A stretch of 13,965 nucleotides of DNA, taken from IMG/VR virus record IMGVR_UViG_2681813421_000009; one strand, 5' to 3'. Positions 1-13,965 of this stretch are shown here, piece by piece. The notes beneath the pieces are model-generated. The model was given only the letters and a program-made list of their open reading frames with translations, was not told the origin of the DNA and searched no databases. The stretch comes from a virus. Its lineage: Duplodnaviria > Heunggongvirae > Uroviricota > Caudoviricetes. Positions within the stretch are counted from its first letter, which is position 1. Each line of letters begins with the position of its first letter. The position numbers and the translations under genes were made by a program.

Positions 1-1269
1 ATGCCAAAACTCACAGATATGCAGATCCGCGCATGGATAAAGGCGGGAGACAGATTTGATGGCAAGGCAGACGGCAACGGCCTTTATATTTGCTACCCCA
101 AAAACTACACAGTCCCGTTCTGGCGATTCCGATATAAGCTCGCAGGAAAACAGCGGGCTATGGTTATCGGCTCTTACTCCGAACTGTCACTATCAAAAGC
201 CAGAGAAACAGCAAAAGAGCTGTCAGCCAGAGTTGCTCTTGGCTATGACGTAGCAGCAGAAAAACAGGAACGAAAAGCTGAAGCACTGGCAAAAATGGAG
301 GCTGAGAAAAACGCCATGCGCGTTTCAGATCTGGCCGCCGAATACTTCGAGCGACAGATACTTCCGAGATGGAAACATCCCGATATCCTTCGCCGGAGAA
401 TTGATAAGGATATTAACCCCTGCATTGGGCATATGAAGGTAGAGGACGTTAAGCCACGTCACATTGACGACATGTTAAAAGGTATCGTTGACCGAGGAGC
501 ACCAACGATAGCAACAGATGTATTACGCTGGACACGCCGTATCTTTGACTATGGGATAAAACGCCACGCTCTGGAGATAAACCCTTGTTCAGCGTTTGAA
601 GTATCTGATGCTGGTGGTAAAGAGGTTTCCCGCGACCGTTGGCTAACTCGCGATGAGCTTATCAGGCTATTCGAGGCTATGCGCACCGCAAAAGGATTCA
701 GCCGCCAGAACGAACTGACATTTAAGCTATTGCTGGCACTATGCGTTCGTAAGATGGAGTTATGCGCCGCACGATGGGAAGAGTTTGATTTAGATGGTGC
801 GGTATGGCATTTGCCGGAAGAACGCAGCAAAAACGGAGACCCTATTGATATACCTCTACCTTCCCCAGCCGTTGAATGGTTGAGAGAGCTACACACCTTT
901 TCATGTAATAGCGCATGGGTGCTTCCGGCCAGGAAGATGCAAAACAGAATGATCCCACATATTCAGGAAAGCACTTTACCCGTAGCACTGGCTAAGGTTC
1001 GCGCCGAAATGCCGGATGTGCCTAATTTCACGATTCACGACTTCCGACGCACCGCACGTACTCATTTAGCAGCATTGGGTGTTGATCCTGTCGTGGCGGA
1101 ACGATGCCTCAATCATCGCATTAAGGGCGTAGAGGGGATTTATAACCGTCATCAGTATTTTGATGAGCGTAAAGCAGCACTGGCACAGTGGGCAGATCTG
1201 CTGGTGGCACTGGAAAGCGGGAAAGACTACAACGTAACGCCATTCGATAAAGCCCGGAGGCAAATGTGA
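1..1269 (+). CDS. int: P4-family tyrosine integrase (site-specific recombinase)
   Basis: 422-aa ORF. C-terminal catalytic region carries the tyrosine-recombinase H-x-x-R box (HDFRRTARTHL) and a downstream Tyr-containing segment (GIYNRHQY); overall size and layout match P4/CP4-57-type integrases. The ORF begins at window position 1, so upstream att/tRNA context is not visible. Confidence 0.9.
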   Translation: MPKLTDMQIRAWIKAGDRFDGKADGNGLYICYPKNYTVPFWRFRYKLAGKQRAMVIGSYSELSLSKARETAKELSARVALGYDVAAEKQERKAEALAKMEAEKNAMRVSDLAAEYFERQILPRWKHPDILRRRIDKDINPCIGHMKVEDVKPRHIDDMLKGIVDRGAPTIATDVLRWTRRIFDYGIKRHALEINPCSAFEVSDAGGKEVSRDRWLTRDELIRLFEAMRTAKGFSRQNELTFKLLLALCVRKMELCAARWEEFDLDGAVWHLPEERSKNGDPIDIPLPSPAVEWLRELHTFSCNSAWVLPARKMQNRMIPHIQESTLPVALAKVRAEMPDVPNFTIHDFRRTARTHLAALGVDPVVAERCLNHRIKGVEGIYNRHQYFDERKAALAQWADLLVALESGKDYNVTPFDKARRQM

Positions 1270-1916
1270 ACAACATCTTGAGAAAATCGCCAATCGAACG
1301 GCTTTGTTCATCTGTATCGATTACCCCTCATGAAATGGCTGTGGCCTTGGCTGGCCTAAACCCATCTATGCGCATTAGCGATGTGCCTGAGGAAAATTTC
1401 GAATATGTCGATTTTGTCAGAACTCATCTTGCCAGAGCTATCAAGGTGTACAGAGGTGAAAAAACTAGTAAAGATGAGCCTTGCCATGCCCTTGATATTT
1501 TCTTAGCTTCTTACCCATTTATTGACACAAATACACCAGAAATAATTGTTCAGAAAATATCAGAAGCGATTGATGATTTGCGTGGCACCAAGGGCTGGGA
1601 AGAAAAAGCCCGAAACCTTGGAGGACTCCAGTTAGTAAACTACATCAAAGAAACCAACCGCAGCGGACGTGGGCAGCATAGAAAGCAGGATGAGGAAAAC
1701 GGGACAATGAAAATGATGGGGTTGATAGTACATCTGCTGATAAAAAAATCAGGCTCATCTTCCTACATCCAAAATGGGAAACCTAATCGCACAGCTATAT
1801 ACCGTGACATAGAAACCTTAATCAAGGATGAAGGGATATCCCATAAAGGAATAGCAAAAGCCACATTCCTAGAAAAAATCTCACGGGCTTTATTAGCTGT
1901 CCACGATCTCGACTAA
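1266..1916 (+). CDS. hypothetical protein (integrase-adjacent orphan gene, AT-rich)
   Basis: 216-aa ORF with GTG start overlapping the integrase stop (TGA 1267-1269); an in-frame ATG at 1335 is an alternative start. Visibly lower GC than the integrase. No motif I recognise. Confidence 0.5.
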   Translation: MNNILRKSPIERLCSSVSITPHEMAVALAGLNPSMRISDVPEENFEYVDFVRTHLARAIKVYRGEKTSKDEPCHALDIFLASYPFIDTNTPEIIVQKISEAIDDLRGTKGWEEKARNLGGLQLVNYIKETNRSGRGQHRKQDEENGTMKMMGLIVHLLIKKSGSSSYIQNGKPNRTAIYRDIETLIKDEGISHKGIAKATFLEKISRALLAVHDLD

Positions 1917-2387: not shown

Positions 2388-2606
2388 ATGACAGTACACA
2401 AGCCAGCATCATCAGCTATCCCAACAACTGGATACATCCGTCGCTTTCGCATGCCGGAATTGCTAGGTGTTTCACTGCCTACTATTGATAGATGGGTTAA
2501 AAATGGCACTCTTCCACGCCCAGTGAAGCTAACAGATAACGTGACTGCGTTTGATGCGGTGGAAATTAATAACTGGCTGGCAGAACGCCGCGGGAAGGTG
2601 GCCTGA
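2388..2606 (+). CDS. alpA: AlpA-family (phage/prophage) transcriptional regulator, helix-turn-helix
   Basis: 72-aa ORF; the segment RFRMPELLGVSLPTIDRWVKNGTLPRPVKL is the characteristic AlpA HTH pattern. Purine-rich stretch (GAGAGG) upstream of the ATG; position after the integrase as in CP4-57/P4-like islands. Confidence 0.85.
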   Translation: MTVHKPASSAIPTTGYIRRFRMPELLGVSLPTIDRWVKNGTLPRPVKLTDNVTAFDAVEINNWLAERRGKVA

Positions 2607-3049: not shown

Positions 3050-3883
3050 ATGAACATCGAAAAAAGCAGATTAATTTCTGAGGCCGCCCCTCATCTGAAC
3101 GCCTCTCTGGGCACAATTAACGGTAATGAATTTGCCGCAATTGTCCCGGTTATTTCTGGTCATATAGGCGGGCGTGAAACCAATATTGTTAGCGCAAAAG
3201 CGTTACACAAAGCGTTGGGCGTGGGAAAAGACTTCTCTACATGGATCACTGATCGCATCTCTGAATATGACTTCACCATTGGGCACGATTACTCAGTCCA
3301 TAAAACAATTTCCCCAAATTTGGGGAAAAGCCCGAATGACGCGGCTTACAGCAAGATTAAGCAGTCTGGCAGACCCGGCAAAGACTATCTGTTAAGTGTC
3401 GGAATGGCGAAAGAACTGGCAATGATCGAACGCAATGATCAGGGTCGCGCTATCCGCCGTTATTTCATCCAGTGCGAGAAAGAATTACAGCGTAGCGTGC
3501 CTGAAATCGCCGCCCGCTATCGTCGCCAGCTAAAAGCCCGTATCAGTGCCGCAAACAACTTCAAGCCAATGTGCGATGCGCTGAATATGGCCCGTGCCGA
3601 GATGGGGAAAACGACGCAGCAACACCACTACACAAACGAGAGCAATATGATTTCTCGTATCGTTCTTGGTGGGCTAACTGCTAAGCAGTGGGCGCGGATA
3701 AATGGCTATTCTGGCGAACCTCGCGACCATATGAACGCAGAACAGCTTGAGCACCTCTCATATCTCGAAAGCACCAATATCACGTTAATTGATATGGGCA
3801 TGGAATATGAGCAGCGCAAAGGAGAACTCACCCGCCTGTCGCAACGCTGGCTCGCCAAGCGTCTGGAGGCGGTCCATGTTTAA
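3050..3883 (+). CDS. phage antirepressor (AntA-like N-terminal domain plus KilAC domain)
   Basis: 277-aa ORF. SAKALHKALGVGKDFSTWITDRISEYDFTIGHDYSV resembles the AntA/Bro-N pattern and DYLLSVGMAKELAMIERNDQGRAIRRYFIQCEK resembles the KilAC (ANT) domain. RBS ACGGAG 8 nt upstream. Confidence 0.8.
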   Translation: MNIEKSRLISEAAPHLNASLGTINGNEFAAIVPVISGHIGGRETNIVSAKALHKALGVGKDFSTWITDRISEYDFTIGHDYSVHKTISPNLGKSPNDAAYSKIKQSGRPGKDYLLSVGMAKELAMIERNDQGRAIRRYFIQCEKELQRSVPEIAARYRRQLKARISAANNFKPMCDALNMARAEMGKTTQQHHYTNESNMISRIVLGGLTAKQWARINGYSGEPRDHMNAEQLEHLSYLESTNITLIDMGMEYEQRKGELTRLSQRWLAKRLEAVHV

Positions 3884-4058: not shown

Positions 4059-4713
4059 CCGCCCAGAAGAAGATATTTTCACTGGCTGGTATGTCGCCAA
4101 AATCCAGCAATATGACAGCAAAGTCAGACATTAATACAGCAGATACAAGCAAAGTTTATCATTTGCTGGTGGTAGGAGCGGATGCCTTAACTATGTCAGA
4201 AATTACGGTCGATGGTGTTAGCGTTGAGAAGGTCAGCGGCTATGCCAGAGAATTTCTGGTCGTAGATGGCTTTCTCTGCTCGTGTAGTGACTCCACAAAA
4301 ACCTTCGTCCACGCGCGTGACGTTAACGAAATGAGCGCGATGTACTGTGCTTCTGGTTCTTCCAATAGTGAGTTTTCGGAGTCCATAAAAAAGAGCTTGC
4401 CGTTATGCGGCAACACGGTTTATGGTTATAAGGCACCTCATAAAACGGGTGCCGGGATTGGCGTCCTAAAAATTCTGAAGGCGACATATGACGCGCCAAG
4501 CGTCTTTTTTTATGTCGTAGGTCTGACTCACCCATTTTTTGGGCGTTGGTGTATAATCCAGCGCCTTTGTCAATCAATGGTGGCTCAGGCGGGGGCTTCT
4601 TCGGAAGCGCCGGTATCCTTCAGAGCCGGTTACGCCAACCCTGTCTGGGCTACCACCAGCGAAATTGGCGTTTCCGGTGGTAGCGTAACCTGCTATCTGA
4701 AGGAGGCTGCCAC
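4052..4713 (+). CDS. hypothetical protein, 3' boundary unresolved (six-frame ORF runs without a stop to 5119)
   Basis: ATG at 4052 overlaps the upstream stop (ATGCTAA). The N-terminal ~150 codons look protein-like, but the 3' part crosses a strongly structured region and the RBS-supported Icd-like gene in another frame. End coordinate is a placeholder, not an observed stop. Confidence 0.3.
4595..4690 (+). ncRNA. candidate structured regulatory RNA upstream of icd (possibly C4/CI-type antisense RNA)
   Basis: Hairpin GCTTC-TTCG-GAAGC (4595-4608) with a UUCG tetraloop. Nested stem GGTTAC (4628-4633) / GTAACC (4685-4690) enclosing a perfect 9-bp stem GCTACCACC (4649-4657) / GGTGGTAGC (4676-4684). 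Located immediately 5' of the Icd-like gene. Confidence 0.3.
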
Positions 4714-6391: not shown

Positions 6392-8743
6392 ATGCGAAAC
6401 ATTGATCTTATCCGTCAGGTTATCAGTGCGTCTGAAAACAACTGGCCTCATGTGCTGGACTGCCTGAACATAAATGTCCCTGACTCTCCGCGCCGTCATG
6501 CTCCCTGCCCTGCATGTGGGGGCAAAGATCGATTCCGGTTCGATGACAACGGGCGCGGTAGCTTCATCTGTAATCAGTGCGGCGCTGGTGATGGGCTGGA
6601 TTTAATTAAACGCGTAAATAACTGCGACACAACAGAGGCGGCGCTTCTTGCCGCTGATGTTCTGGGTATTGATTACCGGACAACGGAAACACCAGAAGCC
6701 ACCAGCCAGAAACGGGAACAACTGGAAACCGAGCGCCAGCGACGCGAACAGGAGCGCCTGAAAAGGGCAGAGAAGGACGAACAACAAAGACGGGATACGT
6801 TTTCCCGTCAGTTTGATGACATGCGCAGAAAGGCTGTAAACGGCAAATCTGATTATCTGGTTGCGAAAGGGGTAGGTGATTTTACATTCCCTGTGTTGCC
6901 CGATGGATCTCTGTTGCTGGCGCTGGTGGATAAATCCGGCGCAGTCACAGCAGCACAGACTATTACCTCACATGGTGAAAAAAGACTCCTGACAGGTTCA
7001 GCAAAGCGAGGGGCATATCACGCCATAAACGCACAGAAACGACCTCACAGCATCATAATTGCTGAGGGGGTGGCTACCGCCCTGTCGTGCCATTTAATTC
7101 GCCCTGACGCAATGACAGTGGCAGCAATCGACGCTGGCAACCTGTTGCCAGTAGCGGAAGTCATGCGCAGAACATATCCACAGGCACAAATCATCATTGC
7201 CGCAGATAACGATCACCAGCAAGGAAACTCCGAAAGTGGAGGGATCAACACGGGGAAAGATGCCGCAGAGAGGGCCGCTATTTCCGTAGCTGGCTGGGTG
7301 TCTCTGCCACCGACTGACTATAAAGCCGACTGGAACGACTATCACCAACAACACGGGCTGGCGGCAGCCACAGCAGCATTTAAAGATTCGATGTACCAGC
7401 CACGGGGGAAAGGGGCGCAGGTGAAAAATCACAAACAGTCAGTCGGGGCGCTGAATGAGATCAGTTCTGGCGAGGTGTTAAGCGATGATGAAATTGCTGT
7501 CCTCGAAGAAATCAACCGGACGTTTACGCATGTCACCATCGGCGGGAAACACAAGGTGGTGTCGCTAAAGCCTTCTCAAACCGGCGGTGTATCGCACGTT
7601 TTCGAGGATTTATCACAATTTCAGCATTATTTTCATCATAAACCGAGAGTCGCCAGAAAGCTGGCGGGATCGGCGTGGCTGTCATGGAGTGGGAAGAACT
7701 ACAAGCCAGGAGGCGTAGGATTTTATCCAGTACCAGACAAATGCCCTGACGATGTTTTTAATCTGTATGAGGGGCTGGCACTGGAACCAATTGAAGGAGA
7801 TTGCACGGTATACCTTAATCACCTGTTGCAGGTTGTCTGTGCCGGTAATGAAGAGGCATACCAATATCTTATCCAGTGGATGGCGCACATTATCCAAAAG
7901 CCTGATGAAAAACCGTCCGTGGCAATCGTGATGAAATCTGTCCCGGGCACAGGGAAAGGCACAACGGTTAAACCGCTGCTGCAAATACTGGGGCAGTACG
8001 CCGCCCACATTAACGGGGCGGGACATATTTCAGGGCGCTTCAATTCAATACTTGCTAACAAGCTACTGGTATTTGCTGACGAAGTGACGATCCACAAGCC
8101 GTCTGAAGCTGACAGACTTAAAGCGATTATTAGCGAACCGACGTTTAACCTTGAGCGCAAGGGAATTGATGCTGAACCAATGCCGAATTTTGCCCGGTTG
8201 ATATTTGCCAGTAACAGCACACAGGTATTACAGGCAGGGATAAGAGAGCGCCGCTATCTCGTGCTTGAGCCATCTCCTGAAAAAGCACAGAGCCGGGAGT
8301 ATTTTGATCGGCTGTACAGTTGGCTTAATGATGGCGGTGCCGCAAAGTTGCTTTGGCATCTTAAAGGGGTGGATCTCTCAGGTTTTGACCCTCAACGAGC
8401 GCCACAGACCGATGCCTTACGTGAAGAAATCTTGCTGGGGCTGTCTGGCGTTGAATTGTTTCTTTATGGCGAGCTAATCAATGAACCTCCGTTTAATGGC
8501 GAAGTCCGTTTGTTTGCAAAGGATATGGTTAGTCGATTTGTAGCGTGGTCGCTTGAGCGTGGGGAAAAGCTTAAAGAACCAGCTGCCAGATCACTACTGG
8601 GTAAATCACTTGCACAAATGGGGCTGGTGAAGCATGGAAGACCAGACCGAGGGAATGGCGTGTTCTACGAACTACCAGAGGTCGGAGTTCTACAGGCTGC
8701 GTTTGCCCGTCTGATCGGTATGGGGGGTTATGATGTTTTTTAA
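6392..8743 (+). CDS. P4-alpha-type primase/helicase (Zn-ribbon, Toprim primase, D5-like helicase)
   Basis: 783-aa ORF. N-terminal zinc ribbon (CPACGGKDRFRF...FICNQCG), Toprim motifs (IIIAEGVATALS and IIIAADNDHQ), C-terminal Walker A (VPGTGKGTT, about 7945-7970) and Walker B (LLVFADEV). RBS GGGGG upstream of the ATG. Confidence 0.9.
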   Translation: MRNIDLIRQVISASENNWPHVLDCLNINVPDSPRRHAPCPACGGKDRFRFDDNGRGSFICNQCGAGDGLDLIKRVNNCDTTEAALLAADVLGIDYRTTETPEATSQKREQLETERQRREQERLKRAEKDEQQRRDTFSRQFDDMRRKAVNGKSDYLVAKGVGDFTFPVLPDGSLLLALVDKSGAVTAAQTITSHGEKRLLTGSAKRGAYHAINAQKRPHSIIIAEGVATALSCHLIRPDAMTVAAIDAGNLLPVAEVMRRTYPQAQIIIAADNDHQQGNSESGGINTGKDAAERAAISVAGWVSLPPTDYKADWNDYHQQHGLAAATAAFKDSMYQPRGKGAQVKNHKQSVGALNEISSGEVLSDDEIAVLEEINRTFTHVTIGGKHKVVSLKPSQTGGVSHVFEDLSQFQHYFHHKPRVARKLAGSAWLSWSGKNYKPGGVGFYPVPDKCPDDVFNLYEGLALEPIEGDCTVYLNHLLQVVCAGNEEAYQYLIQWMAHIIQKPDEKPSVAIVMKSVPGTGKGTTVKPLLQILGQYAAHINGAGHISGRFNSILANKLLVFADEVTIHKPSEADRLKAIISEPTFNLERKGIDAEPMPNFARLIFASNSTQVLQAGIRERRYLVLEPSPEKAQSREYFDRLYSWLNDGGAAKLLWHLKGVDLSGFDPQRAPQTDALREEILLGLSGVELFLYGELINEPPFNGEVRLFAKDMVSRFVAWSLERGEKLKEPAARSLLGKSLAQMGLVKHGRPDRGNGVFYELPEVGVLQAAFARLIGMGGYDVF

Positions 8744-9882: not shown

Positions 9883-9986
9883 TGGTACAGGTCTGTACAG
9901 GTGGGGAGAGGTCATTTTTACCCACCTGTACCACCTGCAGGCCGCGCCACACAAGGGTTTGTGACATGGTGGTACAGGTGGTACAG
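9883..9986. repeat. Second iteron-like cluster including an 11-bp perfect inverted repeat
   Basis: Same core motif (GGTACAGG / CCTGTACC) in at least five copies: TGGTACAGGTC 9883-9893, GTACAGGTGGG 9895-9905, CCCACCTGTACCACCTG 9921-9937, GGTGGTACAGGTGGTACAG 9968-9986. GTACAGGTGGG (9895-9905) and CCCACCTGTAC (9921-9931) form a perfect inverted repeat with a 15-nt spacer. Confidence 0.6.
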
Positions 9987-10139
9987 CAAAAACAGCGATT
10001 TTCTTTATAAGGTATGTTTTGCTCATCTGGCAGACGGAGGTATTCGCTGCGGTTTGGCACATAGCCCAGAACAGCAAAGAGTTTTACGAGACTTTTGTAA
10101 AATCCAGTGTACAAGGGCGTGACGTTTTTGAAGGTGAGC

Positions 10140-10158
10140 ACTACGAAATTTTCGTAGT
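10140..10158. promoter_or_regulatory. 19-bp perfect palindrome (candidate operator)
   Basis: ACTACGAAA-T-TTTCGTAGT centred at 10149 in the non-coding stretch between the repeat cluster and the cargo operon. No flanking T-run on either strand, so not a terminator. Confidence 0.3.
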
Positions 10159-10351
10159 TCAAAAAATAGCCTCTGAGATGTTGTTATGCCTGTTCAGCAA
10201 ACCATCCGCATAGCTGATCGCGAATCAAATTACCAATGGAGCCAGAAGCAAGGGCAGAACTGGAAAGCGCCTGCCGTGAAGAGTAATGCGACTCCATAAA
10301 TATAGTTTTTAGAGTCCATAAAAAAACTGTCAAAACCTGACATACAGAACG

Positions 10352-10384
10352 ATGCCACCAGCTACTGAACGGTGGCATTTTTTT
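10352..10384 (+). terminator. Rho-independent terminator
   Basis: Stem ATGCCACC (10352-10359) / GGTGGCAT (10371-10378) with an 11-nt loop, followed by a run of seven T. The opposite strand lacks a 3' T-run. Confidence 0.5.
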
Positions 10385-10480
10385 GTGCTATTTGTTTCAT
10401 ATTTTGCAATCACAATGATGAATGTTGCGTTTTATGAAACTATAATGACTGTTGTTTTATACAGTTCTAAGGGGGGCGTT

Positions 10481-10654
10481 ATGGCTATTTCAGTAAAGCC
10501 AGTATTGATAAGTGAGAAGCAAATGGAAGCGATAAAGAAAATTCAGGAGGAGCAGCGTAAAAAATCAGAGGTAGGAGTTGCGCCAACGATCCACGAAATT
10601 GCTCGGGGATTAATGGATAAGGCGCTGGCTTACACTTTAACTGGACGTGGGTAA
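10481..10654 (+). CDS. small DNA-binding-like protein (57 aa, possible ribbon-helix-helix fold)
   Basis: ATG at 10481 with RBS AAGGGGGG 5 nt upstream. The six-frame ORF from 10352 would overlap the terminator hairpin and has no RBS. The RHH call is a guess from size and charge pattern only. Confidence 0.5.
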   Translation: MAISVKPVLISEKQMEAIKKIQEEQRKKSEVGVAPTIHEIARGLMDKALAYTLTGRG

Positions 10655-10658
10655 ATTT

Positions 10659-12002
10659 ATGGCTACGTGGCAACAGGGTATTAATTCTGGTGGTTTTCTG
10701 GCTGGCATCGGTGCGCAAAATGAGAATGCGCCAAAGGCAAGCGACATTAACGCAACGCTTGGTCTGATCCGCGAAAACAATGAACTGGCTCGCTCAGGTG
10801 CAAATAACGTTGCTCTGACAGGTCTTCGTGGTCTGGCTGGAGTTGCTGACATTTATAAGCAGCAGCAACAGCAGGAACGTAAAGCGGCATTCCAGAAAGG
10901 TTATGCAGATGCTTATGCGTCCGGTGACAGGGAGCAGATGCGTAATCTTATTACAGCATTCCCAGAAGAGTTTGAGGAAGTCCGTAAAGGGATGAGTTAT
11001 GTCGATGATGCTCAAAGGGATGATTATGGCAATCTGGCGCTCAAAGCACAGGTAGCCTCATCGCTTGGTCAGGGCGCATTTGGCAGGTTCATGATGGATA
11101 ATGAGCAGGAGATGCGTCGTTTAGGTATCCCTCCAGAAACTATTGCTGAAATGCAGGTTAATGACCCGCAGGGCTTCCAGCATTTCGCAGGTAATCTGGC
11201 GCTGTTTTCTCTCGGTCATGAGAAGTATTTCGATATCAAAGATCAAATGGAAGGTCGTCGACTTGAGCAAGGGCGACTGGATGAAAGTATGCGTCAGGCT
11301 GACATGGAGAACGCGAGAGGATGGGCAAATATCCAGAACGCTCAACTAGACAGGGCTCAGCGAGCACAAATTCACTCAGATGAGATGGGATTGAAGCTAA
11401 TGGAGCTGGGGCAAAAAGGTAAGCCGTCAGCAGACTTAATTAAGGGATTAAATTCTGACATTACCAATTTTGGCAAAAATTATAACTCTGTCAGAGCGGC
11501 GGCAAACTCTCTGCAAGCCCTTAGCAAGGTAAATACTGGCGCTGCCCAACTTGGGATTATCTTCAACTACATGAAATCTCTTGACCCGCAGTCAGTCGTT
11601 CGTGAAGGCGAACAGGTTCAGGTAATGCGGTCTGATGGCATATGGGGACAAATCAAAGGATACATAGACCAGCTTAATGCTGGAAACGGCCTGTCGCAGG
11701 AGGCAAAGGATAACATTGTTAACGCCGCAAAAATCAACGCCAATGCTATGGGGCAGCAGTTTAACCAGCAGGTTGACGAGTATCTCGATACATATGGAGA
11801 AACTATTCCTCAGGGGCTAAGAAAAAGCCTTGAAAGAAGGAAAGCGAAGCTATTTGACGATGTTTCCGGGCAGCCTACATCACAGGCTGGCACTGGACAG
11901 GCAAAAGCGGCAACCGGAGGAATATCAGAAGGCGCAACGGCAACCAACCCTAAAACTGGTCAGAAAATCATTTACAGGAACGGAAAATGGCAGCAAATGT
12001 AA
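10659..12002 (+). CDS. hypothetical Gln-rich, coiled-coil-like protein (about 447 aa)
   Basis: ATG at 10659, 4 nt after the upstream stop; a GTG at 10647 is the alternative start. Contains a QQQQQ run and many Q/E/R-rich predicted helical segments. No catalytic motif recognised. Confidence 0.6.
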   Translation: MATWQQGINSGGFLAGIGAQNENAPKASDINATLGLIRENNELARSGANNVALTGLRGLAGVADIYKQQQQQERKAAFQKGYADAYASGDREQMRNLITAFPEEFEEVRKGMSYVDDAQRDDYGNLALKAQVASSLGQGAFGRFMMDNEQEMRRLGIPPETIAEMQVNDPQGFQHFAGNLALFSLGHEKYFDIKDQMEGRRLEQGRLDESMRQADMENARGWANIQNAQLDRAQRAQIHSDEMGLKLMELGQKGKPSADLIKGLNSDITNFGKNYNSVRAAANSLQALSKVNTGAAQLGIIFNYMKSLDPQSVVREGEQVQVMRSDGIWGQIKGYIDQLNAGNGLSQEAKDNIVNAAKINANAMGQQFNQQVDEYLDTYGETIPQGLRKSLERRKAKLFDDVSGQPTSQAGTGQAKAATGGISEGATATNPKTGQKIIYRNGKWQQM

Positions 12003-13792
12003 TCTTACCGGAAGGTTTTGTGCTCGATGAACAACCTGATAACTCACAGTTTCCTGATAGTTCACAGCTTCCTGATGGTTTTGTGCTTGATGCCCAACCA
12101 GAACAGCAGCAATCACCTTTGGTTTCACCAGAGGAAAATTCCAGACAGGAAAATGTTGTTAATAATGCTAACGGTTTCGACCGTTTTATGTATGGCGTTC
12201 TCAGTGGATTGATGGATGTTGGTAAAGGTGTTGGCCTGTTTCAGGATATGACACCAGAAGAGCAAGCCGCAATTCAGTCTCTACAGCAGAAGTTAGCGGC
12301 AAAACCATCAACCGCACAAGATGTTGGTGAGTTCGTTGGACAAGCAGCGCCATTTGTTAGTGGTGGTGGGATTATTTCTCAGGTTCCCAAAGGGGCGGCA
12401 AGACTGGCTGCCGCCGCAGGGCTTGGTGCTGGAGAAGGGGCTATTGTAGCCAATGGAACAAATAGCGATGTTGCTTCCGGCGCTGCTATTGGCGCTGTGG
12501 CTGGCCCTGTAGCCGAACTTGCTGGCCCTGCAATTAATAAAATAGCTGGGAAATTAACCAAGAAGAATGTTTCTTCGATTCCAGATATTGAGGGGATTAC
12601 TCCTGCCGAAGAGAAAATTCGTAAGTTATCTGCACAAGGCAACCCAAATCTTGCCTCTTCGCTTGAAGGGCTAGATCTAAAACCTCAGAAAGAAATTGTT
12701 GAGGCTGCAAATAGGCTTCATGTTGATTCAGTTCTTCCTTCTCATTTATCAGGAAATGAGCAATACCAAGCTGTAGAGCAAGCCCTAAAGTCACGGACAG
12801 GATCAGCGTTAAAAGCTCAAGAAGATAAAGCAATAAGCGAATTAGCCTCTAGTGCTGGCAAGATAATCGATGATGTTGCTGGTGCGCCAGATGCGTTAGC
12901 TATGAGCGAAAAATATATTTATCAGATAAATAGTAGAATGGAAGCACTAAAAAACCGTAGTGATCAGTTATATAAACGTGTTGATTCCGCTCTATCACCA
13001 AGAACAAAAGTCGAAGCAAATAACACAAGCACTATGCTGGAAAAAATCGCTGATGATTTAGGAGGGTGGGATAATCTTGACCCAATAGAAAAGCGAGTTT
13101 TTACAGCAATAAACCCCGGCCCAGATAGCATCCTAACGTATGCAAATTTAAACAGGCAAAGGCGTTTAGTTGGTGATGCCCTAAATAAAAAGCAGGGGCC
13201 ATACAAAGATGCTGATAAAGAAGCGCTATCAAGACTATATGGAGCTTTAGCTGAAGACCAAAAATCTGTCTTATCCAATACTGGATACTTGCGAGATTTC
13301 GAAGTCGCACAACGCCTTGTAGCTATGAGAAAAAACTTAGAAAGGCAAATGGTAAATCTTCGCGGGAAAACACTTAATGGGGATATAGCGTATAAAGTAA
13401 CGAATTCTCTTCAATCTATGGCAAAAGGTGATGCGAGAGGGTTTCGTGAGATTATGCAAAATACTCCATCAAGAACATTGCGAAGGGAGCTAGTAGGAAC
13501 AGCATTAAGAGATATGCTTTCCTCTGGGAAGCGTGGGGCCGACTTTAATCCATCTGGCTTCGCAGATTGGTGGCAAAACTTGCAACACAGTGGACAGCTA
13601 AAGACTTTGGCTGAACATTTGCCAAAAGAAACAATGAGCGGACTATATGATGTATACAAAGTTGCCAGAGCAATAAAAAATGCTAAAGCGCATGAAATAT
13701 CTACTGGTAAGCTGAATGAGTTTGTAAACAGATTTAATCGGGTAACAGCTCCATACGAACTAGCAGCAAAGGTAGTGACTCCAACTTACTGA
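11987..13792 (+). CDS. hypothetical large protein, 3' end truncated by IS1 insertion
   Basis: ATG at 11987 with RBS AGGAA, overlapping the upstream gene by 16 nt. N-terminal tandem motif [10 protein letters not shown] / [10 protein letters not shown], then a Gly/Ala-rich segment, then an AT-rich-encoded K/E/N-rich C-terminal region. Native sequence ends at 13770; the last seven codons (VVTPTY-stop) are read from the IS1 inverted repeat. Confidence 0.6.
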
Positions 13793-13965
13793 TAGTGTTT
13801 TATGTTCAGATAATGCCCGATGACCTTGTCATGCAGCTCCACCGATTTTGAGAACGACAGTGACTTCCGTCCCAGCCTTGCCAGATGTTGTCTCAGATTC
13901 AGATTATGTCGCTCAATGCGCTGAGTGTAACGCTTGCTGATAACGTGCAGCTTTCCCTTCAGGCG
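13771..13965 (-). mobile_element. IS1-family insertion sequence, partial (continues beyond window end)
   Basis: Terminal inverted repeat GGTAGTGACTCCAACTTACTGAT at 13771-13793 matches the IS1 right-end IR at 21 of 23 positions; the adjoining sequence matches IS1 with scattered substitutions. Confidence 0.9.
13786..13965 (-). CDS. insB: IS1 transposase InsB, C-terminal fragment (partial at window edge)
   Basis: Minus-strand translation of 13786-13965 gives [59 protein letters not shown]-stop, the InsB C-terminus as I recall it. Confidence 0.85.

Follow-up and report, generated by a model that had tools for sequence, protein, structure and literature searches.

The operon at positions 10481-13792 of the viral record IMGVR_UViG_2681813421_000009 (one strand of 13,965 nucleotides classified under Caudoviricetes, hereafter the window) is very probably the ejection-protein module of a phage-inducible chromosomal island (PICI) that resembles EcCIMP1, a satellite of P22-like podoviruses (Lederbergvirus). 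Its second gene, ORF2, encodes a homologue of the P22 ejection protein gp20, and its third, ORF3, a homologue of the protein that occupies the gp16 position in these phages. The original prediction, made from the sequence letters, had read the three genes as an undescribed cargo system of unknown function, placed between a primase module and an IS1 copy. The gene boundaries proposed there hold (ORF1 10481-10654, ORF2 10659-12002 with 447 amino acids (aa), ORF3 from 11987), and so does the tight linkage of the operon, in which ORF2 and ORF3 overlap by 16 nt. The claim of an undescribed system does not, as ORF2 and ORF3 fall in well-known phage families for ejection and DNA transfer, and the element is an added example of a published island type. 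For the window itself the message is modest: the operon now has an explanation, and IS1 inactivates its gp16 gene.

Two ejection proteins of P22-like phages

ORF2 matches the Pfam family PF16928 (Inj_translocase), described as 'DNA/protein translocase of phage P22 injectosome' (gp20), over residues 12-219 with an E-value of 2.5e-73 and 246.8 bits (cut-off 29.7), and phrog_917 with an E-value of 4e-132. Over its full length (tblastn) it is 74.7% identical to gp20 of Kapi1 and 57% identical to gp20 of E212, both P22-like members of Lederbergvirus, and the NCBI annotation pipeline labels it 'phage DNA ejection protein'. The gene stands directly before the gp16 gene, in the same gp20-gp16 order and with the same 16-nt overlap as in Kapi1 and E212. 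By this homology ORF2 is a member of the well-known P22 gp20 ejection protein family. No sequence relatives of ORF2 or ORF3 were found in the PDB. ORF2 is also a mosaic, its residues 1-212 being 90-95% identical to those of other islands with the same short gene layout (see below). The stretch at 11241-12507, which covers the C-terminus of gp20 and the N-terminus of gp16, has 89% DNA identity to Kapi1, with far more divergent flanks. Because the tract sits between such divergent sequence, it indicates a recent exchange between island and phage.

ORF3 had been taken for a complete gene of more than 600 codons next to an IS1 element that marked the border of the operon. IS1 is indeed present, but it interrupts ORF3 rather than flanking it, cutting a 705-aa gene at 13770/13771. 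The apparent frame of 601 aa owes its last 7 codons and its stop (13790-13792) to the IS1 inverted repeat (13771-13793), and position 13770 is the last native one. A target duplication of 8 bp, GCAGCAAA, lies at 13763-13770 and recurs at the other end of IS1 in the full record of the strain (L002, 15401-16290), as in a simple insertion. The gp16 gene is intact at 705 aa in PA45B (L001) and most other carriers. Among the matches listed, IS1 adjoins it solely in L1_E925 and TUM1857, and near-identical strains of enterotoxigenic E. coli (ETEC) are without the insertion. Because IS1 removes the C-terminal 111 residues of gp16, the module in this copy is probably inactive.

The intact form of ORF3 matches phrog_6704 from end to end (E-value 7e-175) and phrog_770, 'DNA transfer protein' (9e-51), which is also matched by the other two gp16 types found in the islands. 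Full-length homologues at the gene-16 position, directly after gp20, are present in Kapi1 (Kapi1_058, 41% identity) and E212 (QVW53994, 44%; both by tblastn), and residues 204-701 are 62.5% identical to the homologue in Sf101. By family and position ORF3 corresponds to the gp16-position ejection protein that P22-like phages carry. The passing impression that the large proteins resemble phage ejection proteins was borne out (PF16928, phrog_917, phrog_770 and phrog_6704); the statement that no protein of the operon can be tied to a named family stands for ORF1, but not for ORF2 (PF16928) or ORF3 (PHROG 770 and 6704).

A phage-inducible chromosomal island related to EcCIMP1

The window is identical to part of the record of E. 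coli L1_E925 (NZ_LR883050), where the island adjoins yicC, and it spans the island from the integrase gene through to IS1. A terminal integrase (next to yicC in the annotation of both PA45B and L1_E925), an AlpA-family regulator and a primase module all lie in the same orientation (Table 1), which is the layout of a PICI. Capsid, portal, terminase, tail and lysis genes are absent from the whole-island annotation of both strains, where the ejection genes are the sole virion genes. Judged by its gene content, the element is an EcCIMP1-like PICI, a published island type, and not a phage. Homology to virion proteins inside an ordinary prophage structural module had been named as the finding that would speak against a new system; the homology is there, but the operon is surrounded by a satellite-type island and not by such a module.

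Table 1 Features of the window and the evidence for them
Feature	Position	Strand	Evidence
Tyrosine integrase, at the yicC-side end of the island	1..1269	+	Pfam Arm-DNA-bind_3, Phage_int_M, Phage_integrase
AlpA-family regulator, at the PICI master-regulator position	2388..2606	+	PF05930 Phage_AlpA, 26.4 bits (cut-off 21)
AntA/AntB-type antirepressor	3050..3883	+	PF08346, E 1.2e-21
isrK and C4 antisense RNA region, suggestive of P1/P4-type RNA immunity	4433..4660	+	Rfam RF01394, RF01695
Primase/replication protein with Zn-ribbon, Toprim and DUF5906	6392..8743	+	Pfam matches
Control region	10250..10480	+	Alignment; ~230 bp nearly invariant across the 8 islands compared
Intrinsic-terminator-like hairpin, then seven T	10343..10387	+	Folding energy against shuffles
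ORF1, 57 aa, leads the operon	10481..10654	+	ORF call; homologues in islands only
ORF2, 447 aa, P22 gp20-type ejection protein (periplasm-spanning tube)	10659..12002	+	PF16928, phrog_917
ORF3, first 594 of the 705 codons for a gp16-position ejection protein	11987..13770	+	phrog_6704, phrog_770; IS1 junction
IS1 end, inserted in ORF3	13771..13965	-	PGAP annotation of the identical record; junction and duplication

The 20-kb island EcCIMP1, carried by E. coli MP1 (Pick, Stadel & Raivio 2025, PMC11773190), is the one PICI of this type for which helper-dependent excision, replication and transfer have been shown. Excision occurs solely in the presence of the P22-like phage Kapi1, which also transduces the island. 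Both excision and transfer need the master regulator alpA, and an AntA-type antirepressor is kept across EcCIMP1-like elements. The island leaves Kapi1 titres after induction unlowered and contributes to the protection of lysogens from superinfection by Kapi1, the responsible gene being unmapped (all PMC11773190). The genes behind the primase were coloured 'DNA transfer' in that paper and were not identified as ejection proteins, and the sole later paper that we found naming EcCIMP1 leaves them untreated.

The window island and EcCIMP1 share a common backbone (int, alpA, a 143-aa ORF, AntA, DUF4222, Ash/Icd, small ORFs, primase, and PerC at the far end), the same ORF1 leader (the ORF1 region is ~93% identical), a nearly identical control region and an ejection-protein module directly behind ORF1. 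They differ in their integrases and integration sites (tRNA-Thr for EcCIMP1, yicC here), in the primase (DUF927 versus DUF5906 in the window) and in the module, which in EcCIMP1 has the long form gp14-gp7-gp20-gp16 with a 439-aa gp20 and a 906-aa gp16 carrying a transglycosylase domain, whereas the window has gp20-gp16 alone, with a Kapi1-like gp20 and a 705-aa gp16 that is cut by IS1.

With the ejection (E) proteins gp7, gp20 and gp16, together with gp14, of P22-like phages (P22, Sf6, HK620, CUS-3, Kapi1) the module has in common the protein families, gene order, gp20/gp16 overlap, intragenic mosaicism and a convergent sie-like gene downstream of gp16. Unlike in these phages, the island genes are not part of a virion-assembly cluster: the satellite lacks genes for coat, portal, terminase and tail. 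The module of the window is headed by an island-specific small ORF that replaces gp14 and gp7.

The original prediction had also placed the operon in a cargo slot of a P4-family element. An integrase, AlpA, an Ash/Icd region with a C4-type RNA and a Toprim primase are indeed shared with P4-like satellites, but psu, delta and sid were found neither among the window ORFs, scanned with Pfam and PHROG, nor in the whole-island annotation. Because these three genes are among the seven key components that define the P4-like family (PMC8628076), the island is of the EcCIMP1 type and not P4-like by the published definition. The supposed slot holds a conserved operon of the island family, with no PADLOC match.

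Distribution, gene layouts and allele pairs

In a survey of 5426 complete E. coli genomes, the ORF1 region was present in 522, with the junction from ORF1 to gp20 (short layout) in 217 and that from ORF1 to gp14 (long layout) in 257, so that ~9% of the genomes hold ORF1 followed by gp20-gp16 or gp14-gp7-gp20-gp16. The short layout, ORF1-gp20-gp16, occurs in the window and in L001, L011 and L014; the long one, ORF1-gp14(DUF2824)-gp7-gp20-gp16, in L005, L006, L007, L012, L013 and EcCIMP1. Ejection genes stand directly behind ORF1 in each of the 10 sampled E. coli islands. The island family is present in about one in eleven complete E. coli genomes, including ETEC, extraintestinal pathogenic E. 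coli and commensals, nearly always with ejection genes, of which the family has several matched allele pairs.

The contexts in other genera were drawn from ORF1 homologues; a pattern scan based on the gp20 alignment, with one genome per species, gave two loci (L009, L010). Serratia islands with the same backbone encode ORF1, a 448-aa Inj_translocase protein and a 943-aa transglycosylase-domain protein with gp16-like similarity. Conservation of the trio, on which the original prediction had made its claim depend, extends to other genomes and genera (E. coli islands, Serratia). In islands of Erwinia persicina with the same backbone (L021 10001-13662; L022 9771-13435), an ORF1 homologue is followed by a protein of 108 aa and a full-length tape-measure protein of 1049 aa (phrog_1107, E = 0), and no other tail genes were found in these two islands. 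Raoultella elements encode a 605-aa protein with both tape-measure-like and injection-transglycosylase-like similarity. The tape-measure protein helps to form the DNA-entry conduit of long-tailed phages, which would make the Erwinia islands a parallel to those with the gp20/gp16 module.

The gp20/gp16 pairs of the islands fall into three allele classes, with every gp20 class tied to one and the same gp16 class. Between EcCIMP1 and Kapi1 the identity is 26% for gp20, 24% for gp16, 83% for gp14 and 57% for gp7. The ratio of nonsynonymous to synonymous substitution rates (dN/dS) between island copies is 0.05-0.32 where divergence suffices (one near-identical pair with almost no substitutions gave 0.73). 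By this measure, island gp20 and gp16 are under purifying selection, which together with the co-variation of the alleles points more to working pairs than to debris. In the sampled islands gp20 is intact in 10 of 10 and gp16 is disrupted in 3 of 10. Apart from the window, gp16 is separately broken by IS1203 in MDR_56 (L012 11334-14752) and by a truncation in OkiPb01714 (L014 9890-11705). Variable neighbour genes in relatives include Abi_2, RnlAB and ImmA/IrrE.

A proposed DNA conduit supplied by a satellite

The genetics of P22 gives the pairing of the two proteins a possible meaning. In P22, gp16 and gp20 must be cognate: with one of them foreign the virions are dead, and with both foreign they work, although virions with a non-cognate gp16 or gp20 still assemble (PMC10883804). 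The same source reports that gp7 is conserved and interchangeable, that escape from the exclusion protein SieA maps to the C-terminal regions of gp16 and gp20, and that swapped ejection proteins can yield partial SieA escape. The short island layout retains exactly gp20 and gp16, the pair that needs to match in P22.

In P22, sieA is convergent and lies directly after gene 16. The islands likewise have a convergent gene directly after gp16, whose product, a membrane or exported protein, is not the same in all islands (L001 17825-18220, L005 23036-23650 and L015 12632-13330, all on the minus strand). The window-type gene, which lies outside the window in the L1_E925 record, encodes a 131-aa protein with four hydrophobic helices and no detected similarity to SieA; the gene in L005 and L006 encodes a 204-aa SieA homologue (29% identity, E 3e-8; phrog_7745), and that of EcCIMP1 a 232-aa lipoprotein. 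The superinfection immunity described for EcCIMP1 may stem from a gene of this kind.

We favour, with some reserve, the reading that the ORF2/ORF3 pair is a working DNA conduit which the satellite supplies to hijacked virions, a reading that builds on the homology, PICI context, conservation, co-variation of the pairs and purifying selection observed here. During helper growth, the island would express gp20 and gp16 from its own conserved control region headed by ORF1, and both proteins would be built into helper procapsids. At the next infection they would be released and build the part of the DNA conduit that lies in the periplasm and the inner membrane. The short form would borrow the conserved, interchangeable gp7 and the chaperone-like gp14 of the helper, and the long form in related islands would bring its own gp14 and gp7. 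As to the benefit, we tentatively suggest that particles from island-bearing cells deliver DNA through a conduit of the island allele and could in this way bypass SieA-type exclusion, or an incompatibility at the inner membrane, that acts on the gp20 and gp16 of the helper; a wider range of enterable cells may be a further gain.

Extended to the whole family, the idea becomes a broader and rather doubtful one. PICIs of the Enterobacterales might equip hijacked virions with their own DNA-entry machinery, namely a tape-measure protein where the helper is long-tailed and gp20/gp16, in some islands plus gp14 and gp7, where it is a podovirus, from a common ORF1-led operon that often has a Sie-like membrane protein next to it. 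Such an arrangement could act as lock and key, the island excluding particles of the helper allele while particles of its own allele pass such blocks.

Satellites are known to interfere with capsid size, with packaging specificity and, as found more recently, with tails; to our knowledge, there is no demonstrated case of a satellite providing the proteins that bring DNA across the envelope of the recipient, and our literature search found no published satellite with a role at the DNA-entry step. Satellites that encode relatives or modifiers of the structural proteins of the helper, taken up at helper assembly, are familiar from P4 Sid/Psu, SaPI CpmAB/Ccm and the capsid genes of cf-PICIs (see also PMC6893505), but these genes target capsid size, capsid identity or packaging, whereas the module in the window concerns DNA entry into the next cell. 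If the island proteins work in virions, they would affect which cells the DNA of satellite and helper can enter, the evasion of SieA-type exclusion, and the movement of ejection-gene alleles between phages and islands, of which the 89%-identical tract shared with Kapi1 would be an instance. The reading, if true, would also put right the present assumption that the genes serve packaging, and the lock-and-key arrangement, if true, would add a new layer to the conflict between satellite and helper, at DNA entry and not at capsid assembly or packaging.

Several points weigh against the conduit reading. Entry of the island gp20 and gp16 into virions, and their need for transfer, are steps that we infer. 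Ejection proteins are loaded before the DNA; therefore particles would not be sorted, and helper and satellite genomes would receive the same protein mix, which weakens a satellite-specific benefit. The breakage of gp16 in 3 of 10 islands means that the module is dispensable for carriage. ORF3 gave no match at E <= 0.1 to the NCBIfam and Pfam models of P22 gp16, and an hhalign comparison of three-sequence profiles of the window-type and P22-type gp16 was not significant (probability 3.6%). The missing match fits the mutual identity of just 22-26% among gp16 types (PMC10883804), and the assignment of ORF3 therefore rests on the PHROG families and on its position in real phages. Lastly, transfer of EcCIMP1 is low (~5e3 per ml), a Kapi1-like prophage was present in just 2 of 21 EcCIMP1 strains, and the authors suggested a packaging role for the genes after the primase (PMC11773190).

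The same proteins could instead act as poison, if island gp20 and gp16 co-assembled with those of an infecting or induced P22-like phage into mismatched complexes that fail in DNA delivery and lower the infectious yield. The assembled yet dead virions of P22 with one non-cognate protein (PMC10883804) would fit, as would the low identity (26% and 24%) of the EcCIMP1 pair to that of its helper, and interference with assembly is a known strategy of PICIs and prophages (Tai, PMC11364771). Poisoning nevertheless seems unlikely: Kapi1 titres after induction are unchanged by EcCIMP1 (PMC11773190), no PADLOC model matches, and a single mismatched protein would be enough, whereas the islands always keep co-varying cognate pairs, often plus gp14 and gp7.

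It is likewise improbable that the ejection genes are passengers without a role of their own, in a P22-like block captured for its adjacent sieA-like exclusion gene. The convergent position of that gene after gene 16 in P22 and of a membrane or exported-protein gene in the islands, the SieA homologue of the L005 type (29%, E 3e-8; phrog_7745), the immunity added by EcCIMP1 and the loss of gp16 in 3 of 10 islands all point that way, but both gp20 and gp16 are under purifying selection, and the downstream gene varies more than they do. The module is, moreover, fused precisely behind a conserved island-specific leader gene and control region, and the trio is kept in Serratia, with an analogous tape-measure protein in the Erwinia slot.

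A third proposal, that gp20 and gp16 sit at the inner membrane of the uninduced cell and block incoming P22-like conduits as a direct form of superinfection exclusion, we consider very unlikely. It could draw on the contribution of EcCIMP1 to lysogen immunity against Kapi1, for which the gene is unmapped, on the association of gp16 with membranes in vitro (cited in PMC10883804) and on a control region separate from the replication genes. It presupposes, however, expression of the operon before induction; neither protein has a signal peptide, gp20 acts in the periplasm, and the adjacent gene supplies a dedicated membrane or exported protein.

The operon is almost certainly not an undescribed accessory system of three genes, anti-phage or toxin-like, placed in the cargo slot of a P4-family element: ORF1 is without a family, the island role of the genes is read from sequence, and Abi_2, RnlAB and ImmA/IrrE are among the variable neighbours in relatives, but the two large proteins are strongly and over their full length homologous to ejection proteins of isolated phages, the three proteins reach just noise level in PADLOC (E >= 0.017), psu, delta and sid are absent, and the content of the slot is conserved and not variable.

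Control region and other features of the island

Upstream of ORF1 lies a gap of ~600 bp that contains the conserved control region, with a dyad (TGTCA-N5-TGACA), the hairpin of the terminator, a Shine-Dalgarno sequence (AAGGGGGG) and, at 10441-10446, a TATAAT whose -35 is poor. The TATAAT marks a putative promoter; a consensus scan for sigma-70 sites in the region returned none. The terminator that had been predicted ahead of the operon was confirmed as a hairpin with a T-run at 10343-10387, which folds at -20 kcal/mol (z = -4.7), a stability that none of 200 shuffles reached. Mimicry of a late promoter (Q antitermination) and a pac site shared with the helper were considered and rejected, as a sensitive blastn comparison of the complete Kapi1 genome with the window and with EcCIMP1 confined the shared DNA to the ejection genes.

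ORF1 is a small protein specific to the islands and a presumed regulator. Its homologues are found in chromosomes of Serratia, Klebsiella, Raoultella, Erwinia and Salmonella (Enterobacterales), none was found in phage records, and no family in Pfam, PHROG, NCBIfam or PADLOC matched it. The original guess of a ribbon-helix-helix (RHH) protein could not be confirmed: the structure model, an extended N-terminus and two helices (pLDDT 74.5), is compatible with this fold, but a Foldseek search against the PDB was empty and hhalign against Arc and CopG was not significant (E 0.12-0.17). An origin of ORF1 as a remnant of gp7 was rejected, because DNA homology to the phages begins exactly at the ATG of gp20 and ORF1 has no protein similarity to gp7 of Kapi1 or E212.

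Near both ends of the island in PA45B, between yicC and dinD, a 12-bp direct repeat (GGTGTACATAAT) occurs at L001 3633 and 21400 (chance expectation ~0.08); it is a possible attachment core, which would imply an island of ~17.8 kb. In the window, a perfect 14-nt inverted repeat (CCACCTGTACCACC / GGTGGTACAGGTGG, spacing 32 nt) lies at 9922-9981 directly after a 245-aa ORF, together with an overlapping 15-nt inverted repeat.

The isrK (4433-4510) and C4 antisense RNA (4573-4660) sequences lie inside a 355-aa ORF annotated 'ash family protein'. Both Rfam matches exceed their gathering scores (RF01394 60.5 bits, RF01695 79.9 bits), which suggests a P1/P4-type RNA immunity region; because these significant RNA matches fall within the ORF, its call may be partly spurious. 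Relatives of the island have shorter Ash and Icd-like genes annotated at this position. In the Ash region of the related island L012, a 90-bp pseudogene fragment (1674-1763, minus strand) is annotated 'DNA-packaging protein' and could be a captured packaging-site fragment.

A stretch of 38 nt at 10128-10165 is 100% identical to part of a hypothetical gene beside the antirepressor in P22-like prophages (L008 8770-8807). It contains a palindrome and was considered as an operator, a role rejected as the sequence is coding in those prophages; because a short ORF of the window encodes the same peptide, GEHYEIFVVQK, the stretch looks like a gene remnant.

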